From assembly GCA_965178125.1 (NCBI GenBank), contig OZ237738.1, positions 372,001 to 436,000 on the forward strand: 64,000 nt of DNA, written 5' to 3'. Position 1 is the first letter of the stretch. Each line of letters starts with the position of its first letter. Of the stretch, positions 15,001 to 62,638 are shown in pieces. Below the pieces are notes generated by a model that saw only the letters and a list, made by a program, of their open reading frames with translations, was not told the origin of the DNA and searched no databases. Source of the stretch: Bilabrum cf. latius. Its lineage: Eukaryota. Both the position numbers and the translations under genes were made by a program.

Positions 15001-18000
15001 CGTCTGGGAGCACTGGGGCCAGACACAGCACCGACCACGAACGTGCCAGAGCGGAAGCTGGGCCTGACCGATCCAGTGAAAGACTCGGAGCTCAGTGCAG
15101 TGGGTGACACAGTGGTCTGCCCCACAACCGAGACGACCCGCAAGTCAGTGGGGGCCACCTGGCTACCGTCCACGAAGAGCTTCACGGAAGACGTGCTCAC
15201 GATCCCTGGCGTCTTCACCACGGCGATATGCACGTACCGCTGGAGAGGCACAACGGAAGGCGCGGATCTGACTCGAAGAGACCCACCGAGATCGATCGCG
15301 ATCCTGCCAGCCCCATCCACGCCGAGGACTGCGCCCTCGCCGCGACCCGCCAGCCCGCCGCTGCTGCCAGTGGAGTTCACACCTACCACCTCCACGATGG
15401 TGTTGTCGATGGCATCGGATGGTACTGGAGATACGCCGGGCACTGATCCGCCTGCCCAGCCGCCACTCGTAGCAGGTGTGCTAGCGTACACCCAAGCCAT
15501 CATGGTGAACCCCGCATCCCCGAGCAGGGGCATTGCGGCCAGAGACCGCACAGCATCACCGGCCTGGTTGCCCAGCTGCAATAGACCCCTGTTCCAGGCC
15601 ATGCTGTTGGTAGTTCCGATCAGCTGGCCGCCGCGCCCTACATTCTGGGACACCTCGATGTCAGTGGAGGGGTCCATCTCGTCCATCGAGTCAGCACTGC
15701 CGATCTGAGTACCGCTGCCCTCCCGCAGGGGCCAACGCACGAACAAGCCGTTGTTGTACAGCCGAACCAGCCGACTGCCGCGCAGAGCCTCTGCGACCAC
15801 GCGTACATCCACGATGAAACCCGCCCACCTCCGACCAGAGCCCAGTCGACCAATGCTGATTGGGGCTGCCGCGATCGCGGGTGCGTTCTGGGCAGCCTCG
15901 GCGGAGGTCGCGGTGGGCTTGCGCAGTTGCGTGCTGATCTCCTCACCGTTAAGGAACAGGTGCGTTCCCGCATCCTTCTTCTCTAAAGAGCGGCGGACCA
16001 CTGCCACATGGTACCACCGCCTGGGCGCCAGTGCGCTGGTACCCTGCACGCGCACATCCTGGCCATATTCGAGTGACAGCACACCACTGCGCAATGATAG
16101 GGCCACGCCGGTACCTTGCGTGGCATAGTCACTGCCAGTTGCCGAGGCACCACCAGACAGGTCAGTACCCATGATGTGACTCACACCAGACGGGATGAAG
16201 TCACCGTCGTAGTATACCCAAGCAGACATCGTGAAGGAGGCATCACCCACGAGTCCAGAGTTACTGAGGGACCTCGCGCCGTTGCCAGTGCTGCCCGATG
16301 ATCCACTGAAGTGCAGAGCGCCGTCCTTCCACACACCTCCGCCAACGCTGCCAGAGTTGCTGTGCCCCGAAGCATCCAGCAGCAAGCTGCCGCTTTGTTC
16401 CTAGGTGCGCCACCACAGGGCATATCCATCTGTAGCCATGTCATCCGCGACTTCATCGTACAAAAGCTCCGCCTCATCCGGGGTCAGGGCGCGACTGAAC
16501 ACGCGAACACGACCGACATCGCCATGGAATCCGCCGGGGACCACACCTCGGCCTCCACCAGTGGTACTGCCAGGACCAGCCAAAGCCGCGCCGATCGTGA
16601 CATCGCTCCCGATGCTGACCTGGGGTAGGCCATCCACAGCGACATCGGCAGCCTGCTGTCCGTTGACATACAGCTGGGTGCGGTTGGTGTCACGGTCATA
16701 CACTGCTGTCAGCATCACCCAAGCGGGCGCATCCTCGACCTATCCTACCACTGACACACCTGGGGGGGAGTAGTCTTCGGTTTCGGTCGAGTCGTCGGGA
16801 AGGAGCATGGCCTAGGAGCCCGGCAGAGCCGAAAACCCAGTCTGCGCCACCTCACGGGTGAGAGGAATGGCAGGCGTTCCGCTGGGCGCAGTTGGGCTCT
16901 GCAGGTACCTCAGGTCAAACGCCTGGCTGTCTTTGGCATACCCTGTGCTGAAAAGTGAAGCTGTGCTGCTCTACCGCGCGGCATCCGTGGGTGCCCTGCG
17001 AGCCAGCATGCTGACGGTCAGGCCGGTCCTCGAGAAATTGGCTCCACGCAGGCCGGGAACGCGGAGGAAACCCCCCGATCCACGCAGGCTAACGTAAGAG
17101 ATCTGGAAGGCGGTTGCAGGAAACTGCACAGTTCCTTCAACCTCGGCGGTGCGGTCGTTACCGGATAGATCAGCCACAGTCACTTGACCCAGGTTGGTGG
17201 CGATCTGGTCCGCAGTGAAGTCATACGAGGCCTCCAGGTCAGAGGTAGTGTCTGCAGACCCAGTGTCAGCATACACCTCAAACTCATCGATCACCAGCGT
17301 GCCCTCGGTGCTATTGGCAAGCTTCAGCCTCAGGGCTGTGGCAAAAGTAGGCGTGTTGAGTGCGTACAGGTGCCTCAGTGGCGAAGTGGGCTGGATCGTG
17401 TCGATCTCGACCCACGAGGTGTCCATGGTAGTCGCAGAAGGGTTCATTACGCGGGTGTACTCCAGCGTGATGTTACCCATCAGTCGGTTGGCGAACACGC
17501 CAGTGTTGTCGCGCCCGAAGGCCACCATACGGACCCGCTTGCCGCCATCAGGCAGCACCACAGCGGCATAGTAGTAGTCCCTGGACTGGGCGCGAGACTT
17601 GAACATGTCTGCCGCGGGCACAAATGCATCAAGGTCTCCATACCTGCCATCCACCAGAGACTGCTCGCTCTGTGACCGGGTGCGGTTGCTGGGGTGGAAG
17701 CCTGACGTGAACACCGGCTGCCCACGGGCGATGTTTCCAGCCTGCATGGCAGCAGGCAAAGTGAAGTCCACCTGTGGCCTCAGCTCGTCCTGGTGCAGCT
17801 GGCCCTCACCCACGCTCTGGAGACGAAGCGGGCCCGCCGTGCCCCCAGCCCCCACGATGGGCTGCAGGGTGACACGGGTCTGACGCACGGACCGGTAGGC
17901 GGCGCTGTCTACCCGCATGGAAGCGCGTGGATGGGGCGCGGGGAAGCGGGCCCCACGCGGTGCCTGCAGCGTGACGGTGAAGTGCTTGTCATCCGTGATA

Positions 18001-21000
18001 GCCTGGGCCCCGGAGGACTGCAGCGGGACCGTGATGTACTTGGGGCTCGTGTCGCCGTGCGCCCACGAGATCTCGCCGCTTGCTGCCAGGAAATGGGTGC
18101 CAGCCTCAGCACTGCCTGCCACAGTGTGGAATCCGACCACGATCTCAGGTGCAGCTGCTCCGCTGCCAGCAGATCGAGAGCGCTTTGTGATGGCTCCACC
18201 TGCAGCAGACCGGACAACCTTGACGCGAACAGCGGGAGCTGCTGCCGAAGTGACGATGCTAGCAGACTCGGTACGGACCGTAGGCATAGTGGCCCCGGTG
18301 CGAGTCTCTCGGAAGAACAGCTCGAGACCAACACCTTCCTGGGGTCCGTTGCACCCATCATCGTTGATGGCATCAGCCCCGGTATCACCAGAAGCAAACT
18401 GAGAGTCCCACGAGTTACCGCACATGGGGTGTCCCATCTCCAGCGTAGAGTAGCAGGAGCACCCGTCGTCATCCAGCATGATCGACTTGATGCCGTTCTA
18501 TTGCCTGTACATGAACTAAGACTACTCCCGGCCGTGGAAGCCGCCTTGCGCAACCACAACTGGCTGCCACACGTGCTTGTCTGCGTGCCCCGAGGCCAGG
18601 CCAGAGTTGTCCTCGAGCACGTCGTAGAGAGTCTCCTCGCCCTTACTGAATGCAAGCCAGGCCCGGTGGGCCACGTCATTGTTCGGGTCGAAGGTCCAAA
18701 TGTACGTAGTGCCTTTGCTGTCACGAGCCATCAGCTGCGTGGACTCCTCCTTCAGGAAGGAGGGCATCTTGGCGAAGCAGTAGTCCGCGTCAGGGTCACA
18801 ATCGCCGAAGTCCTCAGAGAGCACGTCGTTCTCGCCGGATGGGAACGAAGACCGCGTGTGTCCATGGTACCACCAGAACCGGGTCCAGCCGCCATCGTCA
18901 GTGTCCATGTCACACTCAGCGCGCCACCCACCCTTTGCGTCCATTGACTGGTCCCCAGCCAGGGACAGCAGGCGGGGTCCGTTCAGCAGGCCAAGCTCGC
19001 CACCCACGGCAAGCCCAGGAGCGTTGGCAGTAGCGCCGAGCCGATGCAGAGCAATCACCTCGGAGGCTGACATCGAGCTAGAGTACACGCGAGCCTGATG
19101 AACGGCACCGCGGAACCTGCGGCCGCTGTCCGTGCAGGAGGGGTTCCTGCACCCGATCAGGACACGGTGCGTGGACCTGCTGTGGGTCTGCACGGAGGAA
19201 GTGGTGCGGCTGCGCAGGACATACCCGTCCTTGTAGAGCGTGCGAGTCCTGGTGGCTGCATCCACCGTGAGCACGAGGTGAATGCGGCGGCTGCCACCGA
19301 ACGAGTCCTCTTCCTGGGGGGTGCGCTGGGACGAGCTGGTGCGGCGGCGACCATCAGACGAGTCGAGCCACTCTCCGCGGTAGAGCTCTCCAAACGTGAT
19401 GGCATCGAATGAACCGGTGGAGTCCTTGCTCTCTGCAAGGGAGATCACTGCGCCCCCACCGTTGGATGAATGGTCATTGGCAGCCGAGACCCAGGCCTCG
19501 ATGGTGAACGAGGTCAAGTCAGAAGCAAGGGCACCGCAATCTGCATGCCCAGCCCCGTCCAGCACAAGAGACCCACCGCTCACGCGTGCAGTGCCCTCCA
19601 GCGAGCACTAGAAGCCGGTGGACGAGGCAGTGCTGCCTCCCACGCGGTTCATCGAATTCACCAGAGCGGCACTCCTGCGGGTGGCAGCAGCAGACGCAGT
19701 GCTGGCGCCCTCCTCGTCCAAGGAAGATCCCCCGTCAAAGTCCCAATCAGCGGCTGCCTTGGCAAGGGCGCTGACCTCAAGGCCAATGAGTGAAGGGCCT
19801 CCGCCTGCAGCACCGTGCACTGCGACCACGTCACGCATGGACAGGGCCCGCGAGTAGAACCGCACGTCGTACAGCCTGCCGTTCCACACGTGCTCGTTGC
19901 CACTGGCGGGGTCCTGGTGGATTCCCAGCTGCAAAGGAGCGGCCTTGATGGAGGGGGGCGCGTTGGCGGACGGCTGGCCGCGGATGGCGGCGTCCGTGTC
20001 GAGCTGAGCCACTGCCTTGGCTCCGTTGATGTAGATGGTGGTGCTCTCGAGCTTCTTGCTGGAGGGAGTCCTGGTCACGCACACGTGGGTCCACTCGCCC
20101 ACGGTGCCGGCGTCCTTGGACAGCACGCGGGCCCCACGGAAATCCACGCCGAGCCGGCCGCCCTTGAACGCACCGAAGACGAGGCCTTGGTTCGTCTGAA
20201 TGCCGCTGTAGGCGCGCAGCCCCAGGATGGGCGCATAGGACAGGGACGAGGGCCACTGGGTGCCGCCTTGATATCCGTCGTACCGAAACCAAGCGCAGAA
20301 CGAGAAGGCCTGGTCGCCTTCTACAGGGACAGGGGTGTCGCTGCTGCCTGCTTGCGCTGCGCCGGCCTCTTCAGTGGTAGTGGCGGACTTGAAGAGAAAC
20401 CCACCATCGGAGGCGCTGAACTTGTACTGGCTGGTGGCGGGCAGGTCGAAGCCACGGCCGGAGTAGTCGCGCACGTCGCCATTGGGCCGGGGCGCACCCC
20501 CGCCGGGAAGCAAGTACCATGCAACCATCTGATCTCCCGTGGCTGCATCGAGGTGCGCGCGGCACGACTGCATGGGTGCCTCCCCTGCTGTCCACACGGC
20601 CACAGAGCCGAATGCCCGGCCGTAGGTGGTGCCACCCGGCACCCGATAGAGGGCGCTCACAGCGCCCGAGTCGGCTCCCGCGTAGATGGCGGCCACTCCG
20701 TTGGAATCAGGGGTCCAGTCGCAGAGTGCGGTGGTGGACGAGACACGGGCCACTGCTCCGTACCCGTCACCCCCCTGCACCGTCATGGTACTGCCCTCCA
20801 CCTGCATGCGAGGCGGCAGGACGTTGTTCACGCAGGCGTCCGAGTCTGCCCCCGTGGACATGCACGACACGGTGGCCCAGTTGAAGTTGGTGCAGGCCTG
20901 GCTGGTTGAGGCGCTGGACCCGCGCACCAGTGATGGCCCATTGGCACCCACCGCCCGGGAGGGGTACTGGATCAGGTACGCGTGGTCGTATGTGCTTGAC

Positions 21001-21770
21001 CCCCTCAGCCCGGCCGAGGACTTGCCGCTTCGCCCCGACACCATGAGCCCGATGGCACCGCGCGCCAGCCCCTCATCGGCCTCCAGCGTGGCACCACCGC
21101 TCCTCCTGCTCGCGTTGAACACAGAGGTGCCCGATGCCTGGTCCTCCACGTTGAGGTTGCCGGGCAGCAGAGCCGAGGACTGCGTGGTGGACGCAGTGGC
21201 GTACCCCACCAGAGTCATGGCTCCAGTGGGCGAGACGAAGTCGCAATGGGCGGTATTGGACATCCAAGGCTCGTAAGTTCCGGATGAGATGGCATCCACG
21301 GCCGAGAGCCAGTTGGCACAGCCGGGAAGCTTGGTTGTAGTAAAAGTTGGAGACGAGCTGCCACCCAGCACGATGGCAGGAGACAGCGAGGTCGAGTCAG
21401 TGGCGTCCTCTGCCACACCTGCCTCGGCAGTGATGGCATACTCTGTCTCGGGATCGAGCGGCGCGGCCAGCTCCTCGCCTACCCTCAGGCTGAACTGGAG
21501 GACGCTGTCTGGCGTCCCAGCCCTGTCGTCAATTGCGGCGATACCAGCGTCAAACTCGGCGACCGCCACGCCGTCTGAGCGGCGGACGACAAAAACGGAG
21601 TGACCTGGACGCGCCTTGATTGCCGTGTCGAAGTGAATCTCAATCGTCGACGGCGACAGCGCGACCGAAGTCGCACCGTCGCTCGGCAGGGATCCATCAA
21701 CCGCTAGGGAAGCGAGTGACGAAGCCGCGAGGCTTCCAGCCAGGACCGCCAAGAAGGCGGATCTCGCCAT
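1..21770 (-). CDS. Giant (>7,000 aa) secreted/cell-surface multidomain adhesion or lectin-like protein; 3' end lies beyond the window start
   Basis: ATG at 21770 with a signal peptide (MARSAFLAVLAGSLAASSLASLA). About 20 minus-strand ORFs join in frame through 28 TAG codons and 5 GT-AG introns (12934-13025, 11934-12044, 11721-11821, 10273-10361, 9928-10021). No exonic in-frame TAA/TGA was seen, and the frame stays open to base 1. Motifs: Ig-like N-terminal domain; fibrinogen-like CDMDTDDGGWT; several LamG/ConA domains (WTHVAVT, WYHVAVV); Calx-beta (~17940-18150); Cys-rich CGNG..EQCDDGN..GDGCS..C repeat (~14010-14115); pentraxin-like; cadherin repeats (LDFET, DxD, DxNxPP; ~4110-7760); IPT/TIG repeats (~1-4100). 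Confidence 0.9.
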
Positions 21771-22496
21771 GACTGTCTTGTCTTACTGCTTGCAAGTGAT
21801 TGAGGCTGCGTTCATGAACGAGGGTGAAGTTTGGAGGACAATCAAGATACTACGTTGGCAGCCACATCAAGTGCGCGTCAGGGTTCTCGGTTCTGTTCCA
21901 ATTGAGTCCAGGCAGCGGCTAGAACGCAATAGGAATCGTTACAACAAAAAATGCGCAGTACTGGATTTTGTTGCGGCTTGCAGCGCTTTGGCAGTAAGCA
22001 TCGGCCTCTAGGACGAATGAGCTGTGTGGCACGCGCGTAGTCGGAACCTACCCTCAGGGGGTCCACGACGAACGAATGTGCCACACCGACCAACAAGAAA
22101 GACGAACTTACACAGGATAATCAACGAATACCTAGCAATACGCACACAGAGAGTCTGTGAGTGCTGTGCCTGTGCAAGGGATAGGTACATGGACAGGGCA
22201 AACGTCACTGTTGGATGAAACGGCTCGGATCTACTCGGGTCAGCAGAAAGGCACAGCCATGAGTATCTGGCTGCACTTTTGTAGAAATAGGGGTGGCCTC
22301 ACTTGTGAGTCTGTATCGTAAATGCCGCTTAGGCACGGATGATGCCTCTCGCGGTCTGCCACGGCGCCACAGAAAACATTTCACCCCCCACGGTCGCATG
22401 AGGTTCCGCAAGAATTGCGCGGCAGCGAAACGCAGCTTCAAGGTCGCACGACAGCCTGAAGCGGCACCTTCGCCACATAAAGGCCGGCTCCAATCC

Positions 22497-32573: not shown

Positions 32574-32782
32574 GATCATGAAATAGTGCAGGCGCTTGTC
32601 GCGTCCAATAGCTTCCAGTCTATTATTTTGTTGAAACGAATGTCGCAAGCATTGACTATGCCTGGCACCAGTTCCACCACCATGACCACCACCACCCAAC
32701 ACAGCTGTCAGTACTCGTCACACTATTCCACCAGGCTTTCGCGGTTGCGACGTGGCCGCCATAAAGCCTGTCAAAGGCTGCG

Positions 32783-35700
32783 ATGTTCAATGGCGAAGCA
32801 ACAGCAAGGAAGGTTTCCAAGGGTGGGAAATCTTAGTCCCGAGGCGAGAAGGCAGATCTTTTGAGAAAAGCAAGGGAAGCCAGGCAAAACAGGGAGCGAG
32901 AACGACGGCAAGCAGCTGCTGCCACTCAAATACAGGCCAGTGTAAGGGGAAGCCTTGCGAGGCTTCATCGCGCATTGTTGCTGGTAAGCATCACTCAGAA
33001 GCGTATGGACGACATCTAGAAGGTCAAGTCTGCGATGCTGGCAGCGAAGCGGTCGTTTTCAGTGCCGTTGTCGGCGGCAGTCTCGCTGCTGCGCGGAGGC
33101 ATGCAGCTGGCCGCAGTCCTGCATCGATCGCCTGCTCGTGTACATTCAGTAGCATGCAAATCACTGGCTGGGCTGCTTGTTACCATAGCGGAGAATGCTT
33201 TGAATCCGGGGGCAGGTGCATCGTTCGTCGGTGCTGCTGGCACCAAGTCGGATGTACTCGATCGTTTCTCCATTTGTTTGCCTCCCCTGGTTGCGACTTG
33301 CATGTTTGTGCACCAATCGTTGACTCGTGTGCGCGGTGCTGCCCTGGCTCCCTTAGAGTTGGCGGTCCACGCTGTGTCGCGAGGTCTAGCCGGCCTGGCG
33401 ACGAGCAAGGCTGCTAGTCCCGAAGCAGCGTTGGTCGGCCAGAGCACTTGCGCCAGACTGGTTCAAAGTGAAAGCATCTAGAAATACGCGGCGCTGTCCG
33501 AATCGGCATTGCTCGAAACCGTTTCGATGGCCGACGGCATGGCATCGTTGAGGCGCGCCCCATGGCTGGCAGCGGTGCTCGCACTGAGCCGGGGCGCGCT
33601 CGCAGGCCCCCGCAGAGATGCTGCAGAATCACACCCCGTCGATCGAGCGGTTGCAGCTCTACTGCTCCGCATACCAGCGCTTGAGCAGCTCCTTCATGAC
33701 CCGGAGGATACCAGCGCGAGCGGGAGCAGAGCCACCTCGGCGGGGGCAGGGGCAGGGGCTGTGGCAGGGGCTGTGGCACCATCGAGCCAATCAGGCGGAG
33801 GCTGCGGGCCAGGTGAGATCGATAACGGGAAATATCTGGTAGATTTGCTATCTATAGCTACATTAGAGGGCAAGATACCGTCTGGGGTCATTGCTGCAAG
33901 CGGAAGCGGCGCGACGGGCTTGGACGGCGCTGGGGAAGAGATCGGAACTCGCCTTTTGCTTGGACTGAAGGCCGCACTTCAGGATGATAGTGGGTCCTCA
34001 GACCAGCGGGCAGGCACCTTACTGCTGCCCTAGAGCACCGATGCGGCCAGGCTTGCAGGCATAGTGCCCGGATGCTCTCCCGCAGCCGGGGGCACCACTC
34101 CTCCCAGTGGCAGCGGCAGGTCGTCCTCCGCGGCATGGATGCTCGTGAACTTCGTCGGGGTGGCGAGGCACATGGCGGACCAGAAACAGGCAAGCATCAC
34201 TGCAGAGGAGAGAGTGCCGGGGGTATCATCCGATCGGTCGCCTGTGTCTCCCATCCCGCGGTCTGCCGTCGCGGTGCTGGCCAAGCTGGCTCGCAGGGTT
34301 CCTCTGTCTCTGTGGCTGCGGCCCCGACACAGTGACCTGTTGCACCGCTGTGGGGCTCTCCCCACCGCGTTGCTGGGTGCTGATGCCGAGCAGGAGGGCA
34401 CGGGTGAGCGAGGCGGGCTTCTCGCGCGCACGATGGAAGCAGGCAGCGGGACTGCGAGCGGGGCGGGGCGCGGCAGCTCGCTGATCGACATGGTGCTGTC
34501 TGCTGGAGGCGACAGCGCTGGCCAAGGGGACGTGGATGAGGATGATTTGGAGGACTTGGACGAGGACGTGGTGGCGTTCGAGGCCGGGGATCCGGCCAAC
34601 GCGACGCGGCTGGCGAAGCGTGGTGAGCAGTCGGGCGGCGCGGGCAGCAACGTGAAGAAGGCGCTCAGGCTGGTGCAGGCCCAGCAGGCGAGAGACGCGG
34701 CTTCCTCGTCCGGGGGAGCCGACGAAGGCCTGTGCCTGCCGCTGTGGCTGCGAGGCATGGCCAGAGAGGGGATCCGCGGCAGGCTGCTGTCGAAGGAGTT
34801 TCTCCGCATCCTCGCCGATGCCTCCCTGCCGAGGCTCACGGACGCCGACCGTTTCACTGAGATTGACTTGATCGAGCTGCGGGGCGATCCGAAACGGGAT
34901 GTTTCGCTTGTGCAGATAAAGATGGGCGGAGGTGATGCGTCAGGCAAGGCTACCGAGTCTTCGTCGTCGTCCTCATCGTCGTCGGCTGCTGCAGCAGGCG
35001 AGGTGCAGGACTCCTCATCCGCCTCAGGCTCCTCGGATACCCCCGGCCATTCGCCTGGAGTGCTGCTTCTCTCTTTCATTCACAGCTGCGTGCAGGAAGC
35101 CGCGGTGGCAGACGTGGCAGCCGAGTCGATCCACGAGATGGAAGACGCGCATGCCGCCATGGTAGCGGAGGAAGGCAAGCACGCAGCTGCGAGCGAGGCT
35201 CCAGCCGCCAAGAAAGCGCGCGTGTCCGACGGTCCCGGTGGGGTCCCCAAGGGTGGGATTGGCGCTGCTTCAGGTGCAGGTGCAGGCGCGGGGGGCTCGT
35301 CATCTCCGAGGAAGGGCCGAGTGGACGGCATGTCGCTCGCTGCCAGGCTGCAGGGAGGCGGGGGTGCCGACGACGTGCTGTCGTTCCTGACGGAAGACAC
35401 ATCAGTCGCCGAGGTCGGTGCAGGGAGCCAGACGGCGACCGCCATTCGCGCTCAGGCATAGCTCGGGCCGGGCGGCACGCAGGACCTGCTGAAGCGAGCC
35501 TGGTCGGCCGTGTGGTCCTCCAGTGCGCTCCGAGCTGTGCAGCGAAATGCTCATGCCGCCGCGCGCACAGACCCGGACGCCGTTGCTGCTGTGAGCGTGG
35601 TCGTGCAGGCGCTGCGAGCGCGACTGCTGCTGCTCGACGACGACGAATTTTTCCACGAGCAGCGCGCCCTGTCCTTGGCTGCAGCACGAGACTTGATTCT

Positions 35701-37642
35701 CGCTCTCAAGCAGGTGCTGTACAGGCTCGTGTGGCAGGACTTTGAATGCATTCGGCTCCCGCTGCGACACCGCCCCGCGCTGGTACTGCAGCTGATGTAC
35801 GAGTCGCTGCACTGCTGGATGGACCTGCACGACAGGCATGGTCGGAGGCCTGGGATCGTTGCCACGTCCAGCGTCTGGCTGTGGCCGGCGGTGCCGTCCT
35901 CCTAGATATCCCCGGACGAGGAGGACGAGGACGGGGACGAGGAGGTGGGTGTGGCGGGGCCTGACCGGGGGTTTGGTGGTGTGGCGTCCGGTGCGCAGGC
36001 TGGCCCTCGCGGTGGGCCGTTTGGAGGCGGCCGTGGGGGTCCGCGGATGGGTGCTGGCGAAGCCGAGTGGGGAGGGATGATGGATCGATTTGGGCTGCGT
36101 GGATCCGGGCTCATGGAGGAGATGTCAAGGATAGGCGGGGTCGGGGGAGCGTTGGGAGGGATGCGGCGTGGGGGCGGCGGTGTGCCCCTGGGCCGTGCTG
36201 GTGCTGGTGGTGGGGTGGGAGGGGCCTCTCGTGGAACGGGACCGGCCGCCTTCCAGTCTGCGGCGGGCGCAGAAGCAGCAGCACCGACTGCCGTGTTGCG
36301 GGCCGCCCGCTCCCGCATGGTGCTGCACCACATCCCGTACGTGCTTCCATTCGAGCAGCGCGCGGCTCTGTTCAACGGTCTGCTTGACAACCTGCGGCGC
36401 AGGCCCGATGTGGCCCACTCCCAGCGGCCGGAGCTGAAGGTGTCTCGGGGCCGGCTGCTGCAGGACTCCATCGAGCAGATCCACGCGCTGGTGCGCACGC
36501 ACGGACCGTCCGTTTTGCGCGGGAGGTTTTACGTCAAGTTCGTGGACCAGCATGGCGATGCGGAGCTGGGGATCGACGCGGGCGGGCTCTCGAAGGAGTT
36601 CATCGTCGAGACCAACAAGGAGGCCGTGGATCCATCCTACGGCCTGTTCAAGCAGACGGAGGGCGGTCAGAGCATCTACCCCAACCCAGCGAGCGGCGAT
36701 CTGGTGGACCACGACGAGAACTGCTTCTACGTGATCGGTCTTCTGCTGGGCAAAGCCGTCTTTGAGGGCATCCTGGTCGAGTCGAGGTTTGCGCAGTTCT
36801 TCCTGAGGAAGCTGCTGGGTCACGCCAACCTCGTGGACGATCTGCACTCTCTTGACCAGCGTGCAGCCAGCTCGCTCGCTTCGATCAAGCGAGCCGCGAG
36901 GGGGTACCAGCAGGAGGTGGCCAGGCGAAGGGCAGCGGCATTGGCGGCGGCAGGCGGGTCCGCGGCGATGCAAGGCACTAAAGTCTCTGGAAAGGAGCAG
37001 GAGGATGGCGATGATGATGATCCGGTGGAGGCGATGTGCCTTACCTTCACGGCACCGGTGGAGGCGATGGGATCCGTTTTGAGGCAGGAACCCCTCATCC
37101 CAGGGGGAGAGGCCGTGGATGTATCTTCCCAGAACGCGGCCCGCTTCGTAGCGCTTCGGGCGCACCACATGCTGAACAAGCAGATCGCCAGGCAGACCAA
37201 GGCCTTCCTCCTCGGGTTCCGTCAGGTCGTGCCGCTGAGGTACCTGCGGATGTTCACGCCCACTGAGCTGCAGAGGGTGCTGGGAGGGGCAGAGGAGGGG
37301 GTGAGCGTGGAGGACCTGCGGGCGCATGTGAAGTACGAGGGGTACGGTCCGGAGAGCGAGACGGTGCGATCGTTCTGGTCGGTGGTGGGGGACATGTCCC
37401 CCGAGGACAGGTCGCTGCTGCTGCGGTACGTGACGAGCTGCTCGAGGCCGCCCCTGCTGGGCTTCCGGGACCTGAGCCCGCCCTTCACCGTGGCCAAGAG
37501 TCACCGACCGACCACCGACCTGCCGCCTGCCCACTCGTGCTTCAACAAGCTGGACCTGCCAGAGTACGGGAAGGACGTGGAAACGCTGCGGGCGAAGCTG
37601 CTGCTGGCCATCCGGTCTGGGGCTGGATTTGACTTGTCGTGA
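32783..37642 (+). CDS. HECT E3 ubiquitin ligase with N-terminal IQ motif (UBE3B/UBE3C/UPL6-7-like), ~1,619 aa
   Basis: N-terminus MFNGE...LLRKAREARQNRERERRQAAAATQIQASVRG; HECT domain with GIDAGGLSKEF, YVTSCSRPPLLGF and catalytic LPPAHSCFNKLDLP, ending GFDLS-TGA. Single frame through TAGs at 32834, 33017, 33479, 34031, 35459 and 35903. Confidence 0.92.
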
Positions 37643-42291: not shown

Positions 42292-43470
42292 GCGACGGTG
42301 CTCTTGAGGCAGGGAGCCGGCAGGTTGAGGCTGCTCTGCCTCACGGATGAGCTGCGGGTGCGGGGCCAAATTGAACGACTTTCTCACAAACCAGCAGCAT
42401 GCCCCACGCCCGGTTGTATGTGATTCTTTCCAGAGAATTGCTTGTGAACCAACGGAGCGCACGTCGGGGCGCAGTTACAAACCTTTTCTGCTGTGTACTC
42501 CCAGGCTGGGCTGCCACCTTGCATTTGGGCTGCCTGTGGGCTGGCTGATAGCCCATGCAGGTCCCACCGTGATTGCGCAGACGTGTTACACCATGAAAGT
42601 TGCCGGTATGAGCCCATGGTGTCGTTCTGTGTAGGAATGAGAGCGCCGTGAGGGCACCGGACGGGGTGCGACCACGTCAAGTCGGAACGTGGCCTTGCGA
42701 CTACCAGTTTGAATAAAATGCAGAAGAGATGCATCGAAGTGGTAGTTGATGGATGAAATTTGTCATTTCCGCGTCGATTATGGTTGGAGGTCTTCTGTGG
42801 AGGGAGTAATTGCTGCTTCGGGAAAACCGGGCAAGTGCTCAGCCGCGATTTCGACCCGGCGTGTCTTGTCCGTGAAGGCTTCCTGGGACAAACTCTCGAT
42901 CAAATCGGCGACTCATACAAACAATCAACTAGTTGGACCACCACGCGGTTCTGTAATGCCAGCAGGTCGCGTTCAAGAGCATGCCACTTTTTTTGGTGCA
43001 AAACAGAACTCGGAGCGAGCAAATCGTGCGGATCCGCGACCGAGCAGCACGACGCTATTCACTCTTTTAGGCAACTATTCCAAGTAATACTGAGTCTAAT
43101 CGAAGCAGACGATTTGCATTGACCTGTACCTTCACGGCTAGTACCCTACCAGCGATAATGTCATCAACACGTGCGGATTCCGTCACTCCGCTAAGCATGC
43201 CGAAACCCACTACTATATCGGTATCATTCGAGCAATCTCAGCCAAAGCTGGAATCAGTACGTGAGATAGATATAGTGTATACCTCATGCTGGCTTTGGGC
43301 TGCTAAGCAGCCTTCAAACAACCGTGCTGCATGCAATTCGTCGAGAATGCTTGAATTCGCTGTCCTACTTTGAACGCAATTCGTCTGGAAGTCGCGAAGC
43401 GCGTCCCATATGTCGACTAGTCTGGTTCTTCATTATAATTCTTGTACAGCTACCGTTTTCGCCTGCGCAG

Positions 43471-48444: not shown

Positions 48445-50178
48445 TCATCCACTTCCGCCCCGCCCTGCTCCCATGGGCGTAGTGAGCATCGCTGTGGAGT
48501 CGAGCAGAAACTGCGCATCATCCCGCAAGCTGCTACTGCTACTGCTGCTGCTGCTGCTGCTGCTGGCCATCCCATTCGCCGCCGCGCCACCCTCCCCATG
48601 CCCCATCCCGCTACCCCCGGCGTGTGTCCTGACAACTGATGCGCCCCCCATCCCCATCCCCATCCCCATACCCATCCCCATCCGTGCAGCAGCCGTGTGC
48701 TCCGCCTCCAGCGCATCCTGTCCCGCCGCAGCCGAGCCGTCACCGCCTTCAACCGCCGACAGCCTCGCCGCGCTCAGCACCGCCACGCCGGCCTCCTCCT
48801 CCTGGCTCAGACCGTGATGCAGGGGAGACGAGGCGAGCCCCGCTGACGCCCCGGCGAGAGCGCCCGACCGCCCACCGAGCCGCTCCGCACTGGACGGATA
48901 CGCCCCCAGACGGTCCCCCGCAGCAGCCGCAAACGCCGTGCTCGTGTCGTCCCCCAGCCCGCCGCTCCCGCCATCCCCATCCCCATCCCCATCCCCCGTG
49001 CCCGCGGAGCCCCCCATCGGCCGCTGGTTGGCAGGCGACAGGATGCCCTGAAAGCCCACCACCGGGGCCCCAGCCGAAGTTCCACCCGTGGCTGTTGCCA
49101 GCGACGGGGACTTGCTGCCTTGAGCACCTGCATCAGATGGCGAGGACGAGGAGGAGGAGGAGGACTTCCCCGTTGCTGCTGCTGCTGCTCCCCTAATCCC
49201 ATGGGCTCCAGCCACAGAGGCTCCCTTGGCCCCTGCATTCGACTTGTTGCCCCCGAGGGAGATGCCCTGCGTAGACGGGCTCTGCAGGAGGCTGGGAGAG
49301 TGGGAGCTGCGACTAGGGCCAGCGCCAGCACCGGCACCGGCGCCAGACGGGAGGCCACTGCGCGGTCCCACAGGAGGCATCTCGACCATCCGCACATGCA
49401 CCTTCTGCTACTGCTGCTGCAGCTGCTGATACTGGTGACGGTGCGGGGAACCCCCGAACGCAGTGCCCGACGTGCCCCTAGAGCCGTGGCCTGGTGACCC
49501 GCCGGCCCCGTGCCCCACCTGCCTCTACCCTTGCCGCTGCTACTGCTGCGAGTAGGATCGACCGCTCAGAGTGCCCCCCGCCCCGCCCACCGTTGCCGAG
49601 TACTACTGGGCAGCCAGCCCAGCCAATCCCGCCATCCTGCCCATCGACGCCCCCTCTACCTCCCTGGCCGCCAGCCCCGCCAGCCCCGCCATACCTATCT
49701 CCGAGGCACCGGAGACCCCCCGCTGCACTGCCAGCACAGACTGCCTGGGACCCATCCCACCCGGGCCACTTCCCACACCACCCCCAGTTTCGCCCTCAAA
49801 CCTCGCCCGCTTCGCCGCCCTGCCTCCCTGCCCCGTGCTGCGGCCATCAACGTCCTCGTCCCCTTCCCCTTCCCCATCGTCGTCCATCTCCACGCTGACG
49901 TTCCCGAAGTCGCCCCGGGCCGCCTGCGCGAGTGCCTCGAGGCCTCCCACGGCGTCCCTGTCCGCACGGGACCGCCTGCCCAGCGTCGTTGACATTCCGG
50001 CTCCGAATCCGCCGCTCGATCGACCCACGGCCACGTCGCCCCCCGGCCCCGACGAGGCGGCCCCCATGGCCGCCATGGTACGTGCTGCTGCGGAGGAGGA
50101 CCCCTCCCCGGCCATGTAAGAGGACCCGTGCACCTGATAGTACTGCTACTGCTGCTATTGCTGCTATTGCTGCTGCTA

Positions 50179-50237
<59 letters not shown>

Positions 50238-51600
50238 AGGTGTGGGGGAAGGAGGCGGGGTGCGGCCTAAAGCCCGGGAGCGCGGCCCGCCCCGCAGCAG
50301 CCGCTGCTGCCCTCCTGGCCACGTGAGGGGGTTGAGGGCTGGTGTGGTGGTGCTAGACCCCACCGGCCTGGACGGGCCCCGACCCCGACCCTGACCCTGA
50401 GCTTGAGCTCTCGCCCTGCATCTGCCCCTGCCCCGCCTGGGCAGCAGCGCTGAGTGCGAGCAGGTGCTGCTGCTGCTGCTGTTGGTGCTGTTGCTGTTGC
50501 TGTTGCTGGTAGGGCTAGGGCTGGAGCTGGGGTCGAGACCCCGCAGATGTGGACGATGCGGCCTGCGGCACCTGCGCGCCGCTGCCACTCCCGCTCCCGC
50601 TCCCGCTACCCGGGGCAGGGGGGGGCATGGGCACGATGGGGCCTGCAGGCCCGGTGTGCTCCCCCGAGATGGCCGACACCAGCACGCCCGCCTCCCTAAG
50701 TGTCTTGCGCATGCGCACTCGGTGGTCGGAGAGGGCCGTGTAGGGGGTCGGGTGCACGACCTTCCTGGCGGTGCCTGCTCGGTTCTGCTTGCGCATGACC
50801 TCGAAGTGGGACGAGACAGCCACGGTCGAGGCTCCGTTCGGGTGGGTGAACACGAAGGAGAACTGGAACGGGCGGTTGGAGTGGGCGCTGGAGATCGGAA
50901 GCTGCTTGCGAACCACCCCGATGCTCAGCCGGTTCTGCTTAAACTCTGCCGCGGTGAACTTGAGTTCCTGCGGCGGCAGCGGGCCCATCCGTCGCTCGGC
51001 GACGCAGTACACCTCCGGAGTGCGCCCATCAAAATACAAAACTTCGACGTGCACTCTAGTAGGAAGCACAACTTCTTCTAGCAGACGCTGGACCATGAGT
51101 TTTCTCTCGCTTTGCAGGTGGATCGCTTCCAAATGAAGCGATCTTGCATACCTCGGGTCCAGCTCGAACTCGAACACTTTCGGAGAGCTGTTCAGATGCT
51201 CGTCGTATCCGACTCGTTCCGAAATGTAGAGAATTTCCGGTGCATCCTGCAGCGGGAAAGCCAGCAAAGGTCCCCGCAAGGCCCGCACGCGCATGGCGCT
51301 GCCAAGCGACGCCTTTCTCTCGAAAGCAACGCTGCGATCCCACATCAAGCTGTTCTCCTGCTCAAATTCCTCCTTGGTTGGAATAGGAGAGTCTGATGTA
51401 TTCCTTGCTTGCGCTTGTTGCTCGCGGCGAGCCGCGGCAAGGCGAGGAGACCGGGCAGAAGCAAGAGATGGGCCGCTCTTGGAGGATGGGGACGACGAAC
51501 CGCTCGAGGCCCCACCATCGCTCTAGTTCCCGGAACTTCTGCCGCTTCGGGTGCTTCGAGTCGTGTGCTAAGCTCTTGACTTCGCCAGCCTCGTCGGCAT
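48445..51600 (-). CDS. PolyQ-containing ~1,051 aa protein, putative transcription factor
   Basis: ORFs 50515-51348, 49603-50133 and 48445-49401 share one frame from ATG 51600 to TGA 48445, linked by TAGs. One globular beta-rich block (~50700-51330) is followed by Q-, G- and S-rich tracts. Confidence 0.7.
50143..50238 (-). repeat. Interrupted CAG/CAA/TAG trinucleotide tract (32 codons, polyQ)
   Basis: Minus strand: TAG (CAG)18 CAA TAG CAG CAG CAA TAG CAG CAA TAG CAG CAG TAG CAG, in frame with the host gene. Confidence 0.95.
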
Positions 51601-53265: not shown

Positions 53266-54770
53266 ATGATTAATCGGGTATTTTTCTCGGCAGCGAGTGC
53301 CTTGCTTATTGGTATACTCTCCATGCAAGGTGTTCTAGGAGACTTCTACGAAGGTGAGCTGGCACTCGGAACTGAAACCGCGGCTTTCGTCGATGCACAC
53401 GCTAGTTTTGACCACGTTGGCTCACCTGATGGGACCCAAACTCGTATTTGTAGCTGAGCTTAGCGGCATGTGCGCACCCAGCCATACACTGCGCTTCCAG
53501 TGTGACCTGTATCGGGGCCAACGTGGACGTGCTAGGCTTAGTCTGGTTCCAGCATCGATGCGTCGTAAAGCCGTTGAGACAGGCATTAAATCGTATAATT
53601 TGCGTGCCCGTCCCTCCCTAGTTGTATTTGGCCTGTTTGGCCTGCTACAAGGCTAGGTTCGATCGCCCTTGTGCCACCCGCGGCGACCGACCGCGACGCG
53701 CTCGCATGTCATGGGACCCTCATCGTGTTGCGACGAATGAATGACGCACTCTAGCGCATTTCTTCCCCATCGTCTCCAATATTGCAGTTCTCGGAGTTAG
53801 TCCCGACGCGTCGGATGCTCAGATCAAGAAGGCATATCGCAAGCTCAGCCGGCAGTACCACCCCGACAAGAACCCAGGGAACGCGGAGGCCGAGAGAAAG
53901 TTTCAGGAAATTGCGCAGGCCTACGGCGTTCTGTCTGACCCCGACAAGAAGATTTTGTACGACACAGGCGGCGAGAAGGCTTTGGAGGAAGAGGAGCGCA
54001 ACCAGCAGGGGGGCGGCGGGTCCCCCTTTGACGCCTTCTTCGGGGGGGGCATGCGGAGGCAGAACAACGGGGAGAAGAGACGCAGCAGCAAGAAGGGGCC
54101 GGACGCCAGGGTGGAGGTGGAGGTTGACCTGGAGGATTTCTATAACGGGGGCGAGGTCAGCGCACGCATCAGCAGGAACGTGGTGTGCAGGCGGTGCACC
54201 CAGGGGACCCCGGAGGCCCGGTCTGCGAGGTGCAGGGCATGCAAGCGGTGCCCGAACGAGACCCGCATGGTGAACCGGCGCATGGGCCCTGGCTTTATGG
54301 TGCAGATGCAGGAGGAAGTGCCCTCCAAGGAGAAGTGCAAGAACGAGGCAAAGACCCTGACGGCGGAGGTCGAGAAGGGCATGGGCGACGGGCACGAGGT
54401 GGTGTTCGAGCGAGAGAGCGAGCAGAGGCCGGGTATGATCCCCGGGGACGTGATCTTCAGGCTGAAGCAAAAGTCCCACCCCCGTTTCAAGCGCAAAGGG
54501 AACGACCTGGAGACCACCATCCACCTCACGCTGCGAGAGGCCCTGCTGGGCTTCCGCAAGGTCATCCGGCAGCTGGACGGCTCCGAGTTGGTGGTGAGTC
54601 ACGATGGAATCACGAGGCCGTTCGAGAGGCGGACCGTGTCGGGGCATGGGATGCCGGTGCACAACGTGCCCTCCACGTCTGGCGACCTGCACGTGACCTA
54701 CGAGGTCGACTTCCCGCACAAGCTCACCAGCCAGCAGACCCAGGCCATCGAGACGGCCTTCCAGTCTTGA
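53266..54770 (+). CDS. ER-luminal DnaJ co-chaperone (ERdj3/DNAJB11-like)
   Basis: Signal peptide, DFYE|VLGV (intron 53354-53787), [18 protein letters not shown], Cys-rich segment and DnaJ C-terminal domain ([26 protein letters not shown]); ends TGA. Confidence 0.92.
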
Positions 54771-57815: not shown

Positions 57816-57966
57816 GTCAGCAGCGACGGCTGCCCCCACCGAGTGTCTCAAGTGCAACTGTCCGCAACAGCCCAAAACTGCTCGCAACCACTCGGGCTCG
57901 CTATTTGGCCCCAATAAGCTTTGTAGATAAGGCATCTGAAGCCATAGCGCTCCGAACTTGTCAAGA

Positions 57967-60900
57967 ATGGCTTCATCTTTTAAGGAGCTGCGCAAGACGG
58001 ACATTCATCACCAGTATACCCGGGGAAGGTCAGATTTGATGCCAATGACAGTATTCAAATTTTCAAGCTCGGCCAATAGCTTCTAGCGTGCACACAAGCT
58101 GCTTTCCGTCCGCAGCATATGTAGAGTTCGCATGTAGGATTTCATGACGCACAGAGATACGACGATTTACCCGAGTGCAAGACTAAACTTGATTCTGGGC
58201 CCAAATGGGACCGGCAAGAGCTCGTTCGTCGCTGCTCTTGCGCTGGGCTTGGGCGGTTCGCCCGCGGTCATGGAACGAGCCACTGATTTTTAGGCGTACA
58301 TTAGGCACACGGCGCCGAGCGCAACGATATCAGTGAGCCCCACCAGACTGACATGAAGCCCTTAGCTGCATTGCCCTGTTGCTGCCACCTTGTGGCACAG
58401 CCCAGAAGAATCCTGTTCTCCTAGGACTGCCTCCACATACTCTATTGCAGATTGATTTGGTTGAGAACTGCTAGACTGGTGCAAAAAGGACCATCCAGCA
58501 CCACATGGTGCGACAGACCAAGAAGGGCGTAGTGCACACCTACAAGATCGACGGAAAGACGGTTTCAAAGAAAGATTTGGACGCAGTTGTGCACAGTTAT
58601 GGCATTGCAGTTGACAACCTGTGCTAGTTTTTGCCGCAAGAAAAGATCAGCAAGTTCACGACGCTGAACGCGGTGCAGCTGCTGCTGGAGACTGAGAAGG
58701 CCCTGGCGGCCAGCTCTGGATTCGTTGACGTGATCGAAAAGCAGCCCGGCGACGGGAAAGGGTCGTCTGCTTCACGTGGCGTGACCCTGCACGACGAGCA
58801 CCAGGCCCTCATCGACAAGTGGAAGAGCACCGGTGTGGCCCAGAAGCGGCTGCAAGGCCTCCGCAAGGACATGGAAAGGTACCGGAACGTCCTCGATTCG
58901 CTGCAGAGCGAAAAGGAGCAGATGGAGCGCTATGAGAGGGTCAAGTCCGAGAGGGAAGTCCTCGAGCGGGTAGCGCCCCTGGTGGCCATGCGAGAGACCA
59001 GGGACCAGCGCGATCAGCTCAAGGAGGAGCACAAGCTCACCAAGGCGCAGCTCAAGGCGGCCATGATTGAGGTGCAGAGGGCTAGCGAGCAGTCCAAGCT
59101 GGCAAGGGAAGCCCAGGAGGCCAGCAAGAAGGCGGTGATGCAGCAGAAGCACATCATCAAGACGCTCCAGGCAGAGGTGGGCAAGACGGACGGGCCCGTG
59201 AAGGAGGCGGCCTCCAAGCTCAGGCAGCTGCGGGCCTCGCTCAAGGAGCAGCTAGAGGGCAAAGCCAGGAAGGAGCACGAGCTCACGGTGGCCCAGGCTA
59301 AGCTCGATGACGCCATGCGGGAGCTCGAGTCGCAGCGCAGCGTGGAGGAGCACAAGGAAGCCATCAAGAAGGTCCGAGCCATGCAGACCAAGCTGCGGCA
59401 GGAGATGAACGAGTCGGATGCGAAGCTGGATAAGGTGAGAATTCGCCTGGCTCTCGTCTACGTCGCGCCCCTTGATGCTACTGCGCATGGTTATATTTCC
59501 CACCACCAACTGGTGGCCTGCACTGCTGCATCGATCGCGCTCGCCTGCTTTGCTTTGCTTCTTCTTTTTTTTGCTGCCCTGCCGGCCTGGTGCCCACACC
59601 CGCGACTAGATCCACCCAAGACTCGCTGCATTCTCTCTCCGCCCGGCCGCGCAGCTGAACGAGTAGAAAGTCGAGCTGCGGTAGGCAGAGCAGGATGCGT
59701 AGGGCGCGCTCAAGGACATCATGCGGGAGGACGAGATTACGATGGACAACCTCCGAGCCAAGTCCAAGATCAACGTGCTGGCGGGCTCTGCGGTCGCCAG
59801 CATGGAAGCCCTCCAGAAGGTCAAGGGGCTCGATACGTCCGAAGAGAACTTTGTGTGTCCTATGATGAACCACATTTGGGTGGACGAGCGAGTCATGCGC
59901 GAGCGCGCAGGCATCAAGGAGGATGCTCCTTAGGACCAGCTGCAGAGAGCGCAGAAGACCTTGCTGCGCATGTTTGAGAGCATCATGGCCGTGGGCGACC
60001 TGACGAGCACCGTCGTTCGTCACAAGGAGCAGTGGACCGCAGTGTCGAATACCAAGGTGTCGTTCGGCATGGCCCGTGGACAGGCAGTCAAGGAGAGACG
60101 AATTGGCGTGATCGAGACGAAGCCGGAGCCTTTCGATGGCGGGGCGGCAGCGGGCGGGGCTGCCTCGGCTAGCAGCGGCTCCTCCTCCTCCTCCTCCTCC
60201 TCCTCCTCCTCCTCCTCCTCCTCCTCCTCCTCCTCCTCCTCCTCCTCGGCGGCCGCAGGGGGTGCCGCAGGGGGTGGCAAGGGAACCCGCCACAACTCCT
60301 GGGCGCTAATCCGGCCTGAGCTGCAGGAGCAGCTTCGATCCATCGGGTTCAGGACGGCCTGGGAGGAGGTCATCGACGGGCACGAGCTGGCCCGAGGCGT
60401 GCTTCGCGACAGGCTGCGGAACGTGCTCGTTGCCTTTAACAAGGGTGCGCTGCAGAAGGCCGAGCAGGTGCCTGCTGTCACCGATAGCTCAATCTCGATC
60501 GTCCAGGCGCTTCCCGCAGGTGTGACCCTTCTCACCACAGAGGGGTTCCTCGCAACAAAGGGTGAGTCCTCCGAGCTGCGCAACAGCTGCGGGTCATTTG
60601 TGCGCATCACCAACGCCTGGTGCAACTTTTCCCCGCATGGGACGATTCGTCTTGCGCACCCATCGCCCACCGTCCTACACGACTTCATGTCTGTCGCGCA
60701 GGTGATACTTTCTCGGGGTAGACGGTCGTCCGCAACGGCAGCCTCAAGGCCCAATAGCTGTGCACGCTCTTTCCACGGGTCTCCCGGGACAGGCTGGCGT
60801 CCGCGAGGCAGGAGGTGCAGGCTGCCAAGGACCAGCTCGCCGAGTTCAAGGCGAGCGACGAGATGCGGGTCGTGGCGGAAGCCCGTAGGAAGGCGCACAA

Positions 60901-62587
60901 GTCGTTCGCAAGGGCGAAGGCAGCCGAGGACCAGGCCGCACAGGCATTCAAGACCACAAAGAAGCTGCTGCAGAAGAAGAGCGACCTCGAGAGCATGATC
61001 GAGGAGCTCAAGGAGGAGCTGGAGCAGGACGAGCAGGCAGAGGTGCAGCGGATCAGGCAGTCCATCCGAAAGGCGCAGCTGGAGTTCTTCACGTCCCACG
61101 CAGGCATGCTAGGCAAGGTCCAGGCCCTGCAAGGGGGCGTCGACGGGCTGGCTCTCTCGGTAGCCAAGCTTGGGATCGCCTCTGCAGAGGCGGAGAAGGT
61201 GCAGCGGACGCTGGACCCTCTTAAGGAAGAGGCAGATCGCCTGACGGGCAAGGCCGCCGAGCTCAAGACCTAGATTGCGCGCAAGAAGGACGACTTTCAG
61301 CTGTTCAAGCAGGAGTACGACAGGGTGTGCCCCGACTATGATGCGGAGGAGGTCAACAAGATGGAGCAGAAGGCACACGACCTCACCGTGGACTTCCGCT
61401 GCAGGCTGCTCAAAGAGCAAGGCAAGGCCGAGGTGGAGGTGGAGGCCGCCCGGGGCGCGGCACCCACGTCGAGCGAGATACGGCAGGCCCTACAGGACAA
61501 GCAGGTCGAGGGCGAGTCCATCTTCGACGGCATCGGGGAGGACAACGCGGTGCAAAAGTACAAGGAGGCCCAGGCGAAGCTGGCTTCTCTTGAAAAGGAG
61601 GAGCAGGCGGCCGTCGCGGAGTAGTCCAAGGAGGCGCAAGAGGCGAGCGAGAGCCGTATCGTGTACGAGTCCAAGATCAAGGAGGTGATCCAGAGCATCA
61701 GCGCGGCGCTGACCAGGTCCTTCGAAGAGATCAACTGCAAGGGCCACGTGGAGCTGGTGAGGGACGAGGACGTCAGCCAGTACGGCGCCAAGATCATGGT
61801 GTCCTTCCGAGCCAAGGAGGCCAAGCAGGCGCTCAGCGCCACCACGCACAGCGGTGGGGAGCGTGCCGTCAGCACCGTGTCCTACCTGCTAGCCCTGCAG
61901 AAGTCCACGGCCTGCCCGTTCAGGGTGGTGGACGAGATGAACCAGGGCATGGATGCCAGCAACGAGCGGGCCATCTTCAAGCAAATCATGAGGACCTGCG
62001 GGCACGACTTGCTCGACAAGAAGCGGACGGGGGCCAGCCACGTGATTCGGACTGCTTCCTAGGAGGGCAGGCAGTACTTCGTCATCACGCCCAAGCTGCT
62101 GCCCGACCTGGCGTACGACGACCACTGCCGGGTGCACGTCATCCTGAACGGGACCCACGTCTCTCAGCCTCACCAGCTGAGCAGCTCACTGTACGACCTG
62201 TCCGCTAGCACGCTGTCTGCCCTGCCGGCGGGTCATGCGAAGGGGGCTGGGGCGGGTGTGGGGATGGGGATGGGCTCTGCGCGCGGGGGTGGTGCGGGTC
62301 GCAAGCGGCGGCGAGGCGACGAGGAGGAGGAGGACGAGGGCACGCCGGAGCCGGAAGACTGGACAGCGGATGAGTTGGAGGAAGGCGATGAAGATGAGGA
62401 CGAGTTCGAGCCTAGCAGCAAGGCCAGCTCTTCCTCCTCCTCCTCCGCTTCTTCCAAGGCAGCGTCCCAGAGCAAGTCACGCAGGACTGGTGCTGCGACA
62501 TCCAAGCAGGCGGGCAGGCTGAAGAAACGAGCCAGGAAGGAAGCCTCGGCAGGCAGCGATTTTTCGTCCTCGGATATTGATCTTTGA
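57967..62587 (+). CDS. SMC5: Structural maintenance of chromosomes protein 5
   Basis: Walker A LNLILGPNGTGKSS; VDNLC*FLPQEK; long coiled coils; signature HSGGERAVST; Walker B FRVVDEMNQGMD; QYFVITPKLLPDL. Introns 58029-58115, 58333-58450, 59435-59654 and 60562-60701; many in-frame TAGs; ends TGA. Confidence 0.95.
60180..60245 (+). repeat. (TCC)22 microsatellite encoding poly-Ser within SMC5
   Basis: Perfect TCC run in the SMC5 frame, flanked by Gly/Ala-rich sequence. Confidence 0.9.
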
Positions 62588-62638
62588 TGTTACAGCTTTG
62601 ATGTCATGTGCATTTTGCTTGTTCCTGTCAATTCATCG

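Follow-up and report, generated by a model that had tools for sequence, protein, structure and literature searches.

Changes to the nuclear genetic code are rare, and changes that separate UAG from UAA are rarer still, a handful being reported in the portions of PMC11687900 and PMC5304391 drawn on here. According to the same portions, UAG alone has become a glutamine codon in the fornicate Iotanema spirale, in Protocruzia tuzeti and in two phyllopharyngean ciliate lineages. The DNA considered here is a stretch of 64,000 nucleotides (the window) from contig OZ237738.1 of Bilabrum cf. latius (assembly GCA_965178125.1), and the element in question is an in-frame TAG at position 58625, within an SMC5 gene on the plus strand. 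The combined evidence makes it very probable that the window is nuclear DNA in which UAG has become an ordinary sense codon, read as glutamine, and UAA and UGA have remained stops, as in NCBI table 15. The window is a further case of the known, rare UAG-only code for glutamine; the lineage and the high guanine plus cytosine (GC) content are the point of interest.

The likeness to the Iotanema, Protocruzia and phyllopharyngean type extends to the meaning of UAG, to UAA and UGA as stops, and to the occurrence of in-frame UAG at conserved glutamines. The presumed route in that type is a transfer RNA (tRNA) with the anticodon CUA, and the part of PMC11687900 that deals with tRNA-Gln(CUA) describes it as reading UAG and not UAA; for the window the same route is inferred only. 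Unlike those hosts, the present one has stramenopiles as its closest named homologues, a GC content of about 60% and few introns. Many ciliates, Hexamita, Streblomastix, Dasycladales/Cladophorales and Amoeboaphelidium protococcarum read both UAA and UAG as glutamine (table 6), as set out in the sections of PMC11687900 and PMC6299283 consulted. In those codes, as here, a stop has become glutamine and CAG and TAG are synonymous; they differ in that UAA is reassigned as well, whereas in the window TAA is absent in frame from 14,258 codons and closes open reading frames (ORFs). Excerpts of PMC11687900 also give UAG as leucine in the rhizarian exLh and as serine in Scotinosphaera. These share with the window a reassignment of UAG alone, with UAA kept as a stop, but here leucine and serine are 90 and 43 log2 units less likely than glutamine in the likelihood comparison described below. 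Finally, TAG has the same meaning in crAss-like phages ('code 15', in the excerpt of PMC9523058 used), although the recoding there is partial, concerns late genes and is found in phage genomes, whereas the window is eukaryotic nuclear DNA with spliceosomal introns.

The SMC5 coding sequence consists of five exons and 1351 codons. Its parts are as follows, the joints being those in assembled contigs of the sequencing runs X5, X6 and X7 of two studies, and X1 being a DNA run.

57967..58028 (+): exon 1, with the ATG at 57967, ending in phase 2; joint 58026>58114 (cut +2) in X5 and X7
58029..58115 (+): intron 1, 87 nucleotides, GT..AG; joint in X5 and X7
58116..58332 (+): exon 2, with Walker A (GPNGTGKS) at 58198-58221 and in-frame TAG at 58135 and 58291
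58333..58450 (+): intron 2, 118 nucleotides, GT..AG; joint in X5, X6 and X7, not in X1
58451..59434 (+): exon 3, the N-terminal head block VDNLC[TAG]FLPQ followed by coiled coil; TAG at 58472 and 58625
58625..58627 (+): the TAG under study, codon 152 of SMC5, in exon 3
59435..59654 (+): intron 3, 220 nucleotides, GT..AG; joint in X5 and X7
59655..60561 (+): exon 4, coiled coil, hinge region and a poly-Ser insert; TAG at 59664, 59682, 59700 and 59931
60562..60701 (+): intron 4, 140 nucleotides, GT..AG, phase 1; joint in X5, X6 and X7
60702..62587 (+): exon 5, coiled coil, C-terminal head and an acidic/Ser-rich tail; stop TGA at 62585-62587
60719, 60755, 61271, 61622 and 62060 (+): in-frame TAG of exon 5

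Spliced in this way, the sequence holds 13 TAG, 67 CAG, 8 CAA and no TAA; its sole TGA is the terminal one, and there is no frameshift. When ORFs are listed with TAG read through, SMC-like pieces appear in three plus-strand frames over 57940-62587. Three of the introns were first predicted from GT/AG sites and frame; intron 1 came from the contigs only, and it holds one TAG that falls wrongly in frame if the gene is read unspliced. All four introns are absent from the contigs of X5, X6 and X7. None of the intron joints occurs in the DNA run X1, which follows the genome colinearly at a word depth of about 97-116. One X5 contig of 1855 nucleotides (record 7) covers the spliced span 57926-60167, including the TAG at 58625, with no differing letter, and an X6 contig (record 12, 58553-882) covers the same TAG with no differences either, so that the codon is covered and kept in contigs of two of the three runs. 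Since the spliced contigs show no differences at the TAG, it is present, unedited, in processed transcripts. The frame in which it lies is genuine coding sequence and no ORF arisen by chance.

A sequence-only reading of this DNA had reported the string GTT GAC AAC CTG TGC TAG TTT TTG CCG CAA from an SMC5 gene with intact Walker A, signature and Walker B motifs. The string lies on the plus strand at 58610-58639 as quoted; the end coordinate given with it, 58645, is six bases too far. The identification of the gene was borne out by the Protein Data Bank (PDB), in which exons 3 and 5 match SMC5 only: all four distinct sequences found with exon 3 among all PDB chains are yeast Smc5 (E 1.7e-5), and all five matches of exon 5 are SMC5 (E 5.7e-30 to 2.2e-25), with none to SMC1-4, SMC6 or Rad50. 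Exon 2 matches the Pfam profiles AAA_23 (E 6.2e-12) and SMC_N (E 2.2e-6). The three motifs are likewise intact in the spliced model, where they form a split ABC-type head with Walker A (codons 49-56) towards the N-terminus and, towards the C-terminus, the signature HSGGERAVST (61847-61876, codons 1106-1115) and the Walker B/D-loop segment FRVVDEMNQGMD (61919-61954, codons 1130-1141). The length of 1351 residues and the alignment to full-length homologues are consistent with the long coiled-coil and hinge layout. A full HMMER search with exon 5 returned 1909 proteins at E <= 1e-3; a word-index search with exon 3 gave 7134 candidates and none at E <= 1e-3, its words being swamped by the coiled coil. 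Judged from its transcription, its splicing at four introns and its intact ATPase motifs, the gene appears to be functional.

The sequence-only reading had further taken the residue at this TAG to be glutamine. From the best 150 of the 1909 matches of exon 5, 52 proteins of 950-1400 residues were kept and aligned by MAFFT with the spliced SMC5, X being set at each TAG; the other 98 were dropped for their length, nearly all being shorter fragments. In the column of codon 152, glutamine is found in 44 of the 52 homologues, the remainder having V (3), T (2), C (1), S (1) or a gap (1), and yeast Smc5 likewise has glutamine there (DNLCQFLSQERV against dnlcxflpqeki). The conserved block NLCQFLPQ downstream of Walker A is thus present in the window's SMC5 with TAG in place of its first Q, and on this comparison the TAG at 58625 would encode the conserved glutamine of the SMC5 head. 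The site stood up, then, but a single site is insufficient to fix the amino acid; the assignment to glutamine is made because codon 152, reciprocal sites in a relative (L001), a polyglutamine (polyQ) run and pair statistics agree. Similarly, a table of the residues opposite every TAG, which the earlier reading had proposed as a check, yielded one decisive site with the distant orthologues and proved informative with that closer relative.

L001 is a metagenomic contig of 13,479 nucleotides (55% GC), fetched by a metagenome scan with the catalogue fragment P0004. It is syntenic with the window over 53.7-64 kb and at least four genes, the DnaJ gene, an intervening gene, SMC5 and the next gene being held in common at 39-84% protein identity per segment. 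The DnaJ gene of the window is the following.

53745..54767 (+): DnaJ gene, free of TAG, in which the CAG at 53916 stands opposite a TAG of L001

Three sites in invariant context pair TAG with glutamine, C and T being exchanged in the first position of the codon each time. In L001 the codon at 5188, within VDNLC[Q]FLPQEKISKF, is CAG, and the block is otherwise identical to that of the window, where the TAG at 58625 stands. In the opposite direction, L001 has TAG at the D-loop glutamine (VVDEMN[TAG]GMDASN) and in the J domain (KFQEIA[TAG]AYGVLS), where the window has CAG at 61943 and 53916, the flanks being 100% identical at both sites. One TAG is common to both (GD(T/S)F(S/I)G[TAG]T(V/I)VRNG).

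Pair statistics were drawn from coding frames only, namely the SMC5 exons, the DnaJ gene and the downstream gene, window against L001. They comprise 38 pairs of a TAG with a residue (Q10 E6 K4 S3 A3 H2 R2 G2 L2 D1 Y1 V1 I1). Summed over these pairs, BLOSUM62 places glutamine first of the 20 amino acids (Q 51, E 36, K 19, L -67). An empirical likelihood based on substitution frequencies from the same alignments favours glutamine over glutamate by 28.9, over lysine by 30.9, over serine by 43 and over leucine by 90 log2 units. True glutamine codons in these alignments are paired with Q at.34, E at.13 and R, A and K at.09 each, which is the pattern of TAG as well. True E, K and L codons pair with themselves in 58%, 54% and 72% of cases, against 16%, 11% and 5% for TAG with E, K and L. 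The divergent relative L001 shares the code of the window. L001 also uses TAG more heavily than the window (13 TAG to 28 CAG in one SMC5 ORF, 21 TAG to 30 CAG in the downstream gene), and only one SMC5 TAG position is common to the two.

Use of TAG as a sense codon is seen throughout the window, which contains no N and has a GC content of 56-69% in 2-kb steps. Eleven long ORFs, obtained by reading through TAG and TAA-free by definition, comprise 14,258 codons with 78 TAG, 500 CAG, 115 CAA, no TAA and no TGA. Those referred to by name below are these.

2..9988 (-): cadherin-repeat ORF of 3329 codons, running off the window start; 15 TAG, no TAA or TGA
12870..21782 (-): laminin-G-like ORF of 2971 codons with 10 TAG, ending in TGA
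26934-32570: unnamed ORF of 1879 codons with 15 TAG
32765..37639 (+): HECT E3 (UBE3C-like) ORF of 1625 codons with 6 TAG
50143..50238 (-): polyQ run of 32 codons (24 CAG, 3 CAA, 5 TAG and nothing else) in a polyQ-protein ORF of 1087 codons with 13 TAG

The off-frames of the eleven ORFs abound in TGA and contain TAA as well. The two off-frames of the cadherin ORF carry 85 and 95 TGA and 11 and 11 TAA, against none of either and 15 TAG in the reading frame, which is accordingly more than chance. The HECT profile reaches the last residue before the TGA of its ORF, and the base following TAG (+4) is distributed like the base following CAG. In expressed genes UAG is translated through, with glutamine as the residue on the comparative evidence.

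The stops that remain are TGA and TAA. Ten ORF ends lie inside the window, nine of them TGA and one TAA, and the three complete ORFs of L001 all end in TGA. From a CAA to CAG ratio of 115:500 and 78 TAG, the long ORFs should contain some 18 TAA in frame if TAA were used as TAG is, whereas none is observed; in the L001 ORFs there are likewise none in frame against 0-7 per off-frame. As the ORFs are TAA-free by definition, the sequence beyond their flanking TAAs was checked for GC at third codon positions in five confident genes (the HECT, laminin-G-like and polyQ ORFs and those at 10361-11992 and 43374-45593). The value drops there from 0.70-0.75 to 0.35-0.58, and this loss indicates that coding stops at the TAA. 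Within this limited sample of 64 kb plus L001, UAA is a terminator. Since UAA terminates and UAG is sense, the code falls in the UAG-only type.

By analogy with other reassigned lineages, decoding would be by a dedicated tRNA-Gln with the anticodon CUA, one base from the CUG isoacceptor, together with an eRF1 that no longer recognizes UAG and keeps its recognition of UAA and UGA. Changes between CAG and TAG would then be silent C<->T transitions, and it is proposed that TAGs have for this reason come to be scattered over variable sites, polyQ runs and, occasionally, invariant glutamines.

Several observations weigh against this reading of the code. ARAGORN detected no tRNA gene in either the window or L001, an Rfam scan at gathering thresholds was negative too, and the eRF1 gene does not lie within the window. 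In the alignment of 52 homologues glutamine is never the commonest residue at the other 12 SMC5 TAG columns; in five of these, 39-52 of the 52 sequences have gaps, six are variable with glutamine a minority of 3-6, and the column of codon 1031, in the coiled coil, has leucine in 24 homologues and in L001 as well. One TAG of L001 stands opposite a leucine of the window. With the cadherin segment (11 TAG) the Pfam scores of serine (246.6), lysine (246.3) and arginine (245.6) lie slightly above that of glutamine (245.1), only leucine (241.0) and tryptophan (240.1) being clearly worse. The status of TAA was judged from 64 kb and 13.5 kb only, in ORFs TAA-free by definition, and that X5 to X7 are RNA is taken from their spliced joints, the run records being silent on the matter. 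Pfam scores under alternative readings of TAG are weak evidence. With the MMACHC-like segment (4 TAG), among the 14 residues tried, glutamine scores best (28.0 bits, against 27.5 for histidine, 27.0 for lysine, 25.9 for leucine and 25.8 for tryptophan), and with exon 3 of SMC5 the SMC_N profile gives 12.5-13.7 bits for 14 residues and X, scores that are uninformative, its match at residues 18-59 barely reaching or missing the motif.

UAA and UAG are usually reassigned together according to the part of PMC11687900 consulted, and both might stand for glutamine here as in ciliates, Hexamita and ulvophytes (table 6), TAA being so infrequent at 60% GC that it would not show in the window. TAA is indeed the rarest stop triplet in the window (166+171 occurrences), and the definition of the long ORFs would hide it. 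This explanation is nevertheless improbable given the missing in-frame TAAs, of which some 18 were expected, their presence in the off-frames of the same ORFs (the cadherin ORF included) and in off-frames of L001, and the loss of third-position GC beyond the flanking TAAs of five ORFs. An ambiguous code, in which UAG means glutamine inside genes and still ends some of them according to context or 3' position, as is found for other codons in Condylostoma and Blastocrithidia, is equally improbable. It could accommodate the tails beyond the last TAG of low-complexity ORFs such as that at 26934-32570, which might be untranslated; yet all ten ORF ends of the window and the three of L001 are TGA or TAA, the +4 base does not set TAG apart from CAG, and conserved domains follow TAGs in SMC5 and in a sphingomyelinase-like gene.

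That UAG instead encodes glutamate, lysine or leucine, the match in SMC5 being a lineage-specific substitution, is very unlikely. The leucine column at codon 1031, the place of glutamate as the second commonest partner of TAG (6 of 38) and the cadherin profile scores would be in keeping with it, but the three sites in invariant context all pair TAG with Q/CAG, five TAGs lie in a pure polyQ run, and both the likelihood gaps (28.9 log2 units to glutamate, 90 to leucine) and the far higher self-pairing of true E, K and L codons speak for glutamine. Least probable, to the point of being negligible, is that this SMC5 copy is a pseudogene or that its TAG is corrected by U-to-C editing of the messenger RNA, as might be supposed from a TAG that is a premature stop in an essential gene under the standard code. 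Pseudogenization had already been thought implausible in the sequence-only reading, rightly so: 13 TAGs are present with no TAA, internal TGA or frameshift in 1351 codons, all four introns have been removed precisely from contigs in which the TAG persists with no differences, every other long gene of the window likewise has in-frame TAGs, and the divergent L001 has TAGs at other positions. UAG as a glutamine codon, with UAA and UGA as stops, is therefore preferred.

As to the host, eight stramenopiles, two Symbiodiniaceae and one MMETSP entry are the named organisms among the best 120 matches of the DnaJ protein, the stramenopiles being Cafeteria roenbergensis (60% identity), Chrysophaeum, Hondaea and five oomycetes. 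The best named matches of the HECT protein are Ectocarpus (39%) and then Mucoromycota, and the Protein Atlas showed only generic HECT clusters for the HECT domain, with no lineage signal. Ten SMC5 matches were looked up, the named ones being Cercozoa sp. M6MM, Mycoemilia and Salpingoeca, which are too distant for placement. These similarity matches, which are not a phylogeny, suggest a stramenopile, possibly of bigyran grade, with no close named relative. An affinity to the aphelid Amoeboaphelidium was considered and rejected, there being no fungus-related organism among the named organisms in the best 120 DnaJ matches and TAA not being a sense codon here.

The closest library matches to SMC5 are fragments. 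P0003, 92% identical, ends ...AAELKT one residue before the window's TAG at 61271; P0004 ends ...VVDEMN and P0016 begins MDASNE..., the two sides of one TAG of L001. A further catalogue protein, P0282, is without the J domain, which lies upstream of a TAG. Public catalogues thus hold genes of this clade only as TAG-ended fragments (P0003, P0004/P0016, P0282), and standard-code annotation of this genome and its relatives would be wrong.

The search found no published nuclear case of UAG as glutamine for stramenopiles or bigyrans and no other new protist case, subscription-only papers and supplements being outside it; the DNA runs date from 2025, and a recent description may exist. The window may, tentatively, represent the first nuclear stop reassignment in a stramenopile-grade lineage, one extending across a clade of GC-rich heterotrophic protists that includes the window organism, L001 and probably the source of P0003. 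If so, the clade would have escaped notice so far through the truncation of its genes at TAG by gene callers that assume the standard code, and AT-pressure 'codon capture' could not be the driver of a UAG-only change in a high-GC genome. A further independent case of UAG as glutamine would provide data on what makes UAG easier to lose than the other stops and on whether its loss requires low GC, and a lineage that reads UAG and stops at UAA and UGA would be a natural test of how eRF1 drops one codon.

Some further features of the SMC5 locus were observed. A perfect poly-Ser run occurs in the hinge-proximal region (60168-60262), and the long acidic/Ser-rich C-terminal tail (62288-62460) is absent from the aligned homologues; the assembled contigs break at both of these repeats. 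A contig of X6 ends at 62597 after 17 T, about 10 nucleotides from the stop TGA at 62585-62587. This end resembles a poly(A) site belonging to a minus-strand transcript that converges on SMC5, the two 3' ends almost touching or overlapping. No genes for SMC5 partners (SMC6, Nse) were found within the window.

Among the other genes, three of six consecutive codons are TAG in the MMACHC-like (cobalamin-processing) gene at 37902-38561 (+), GM[TAG]TLA[TAG][TAG]AGLA, just 5' of the conserved IHPRFGPW block. The curated Pfam cut-off is cleared by this gene only with TAG read as Q, H or K, and the aligned stretch in its PDB alignment leaves out the TAGs. An acid-sphingomyelinase-like phosphodiesterase with a saposin-like N-terminus is encoded at 22569-24329 (+) with two in-frame TAG (PDB 5i81, E 9e-40); in the PDB alignment a TAG stands opposite a variable Asp, so that the PDB alignments of neither gene are informative. 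The two giant genes of the window are apparently intron-free and of extracellular type. The cadherin protein, of at least 3329 codons, has many cadherin repeats and IPT/TIG (Cadherin E 6.8e-69), and the laminin-G-like protein of 2971 codons has at least five Laminin_G_3 domains and a Cys-rich DUF4215 repeat. For a protist with stramenopiles as its nearest named relatives, cadherin repeats are unusual. Within the polyQ ORF, the (CAG)n run at 48530-48565 (-), which includes two TAG, does not lie in the CAG frame and is translated as poly-Ser (AGC/AGT); it was not counted, runs of CAG and TAG being taken as evidence only in a verified frame.

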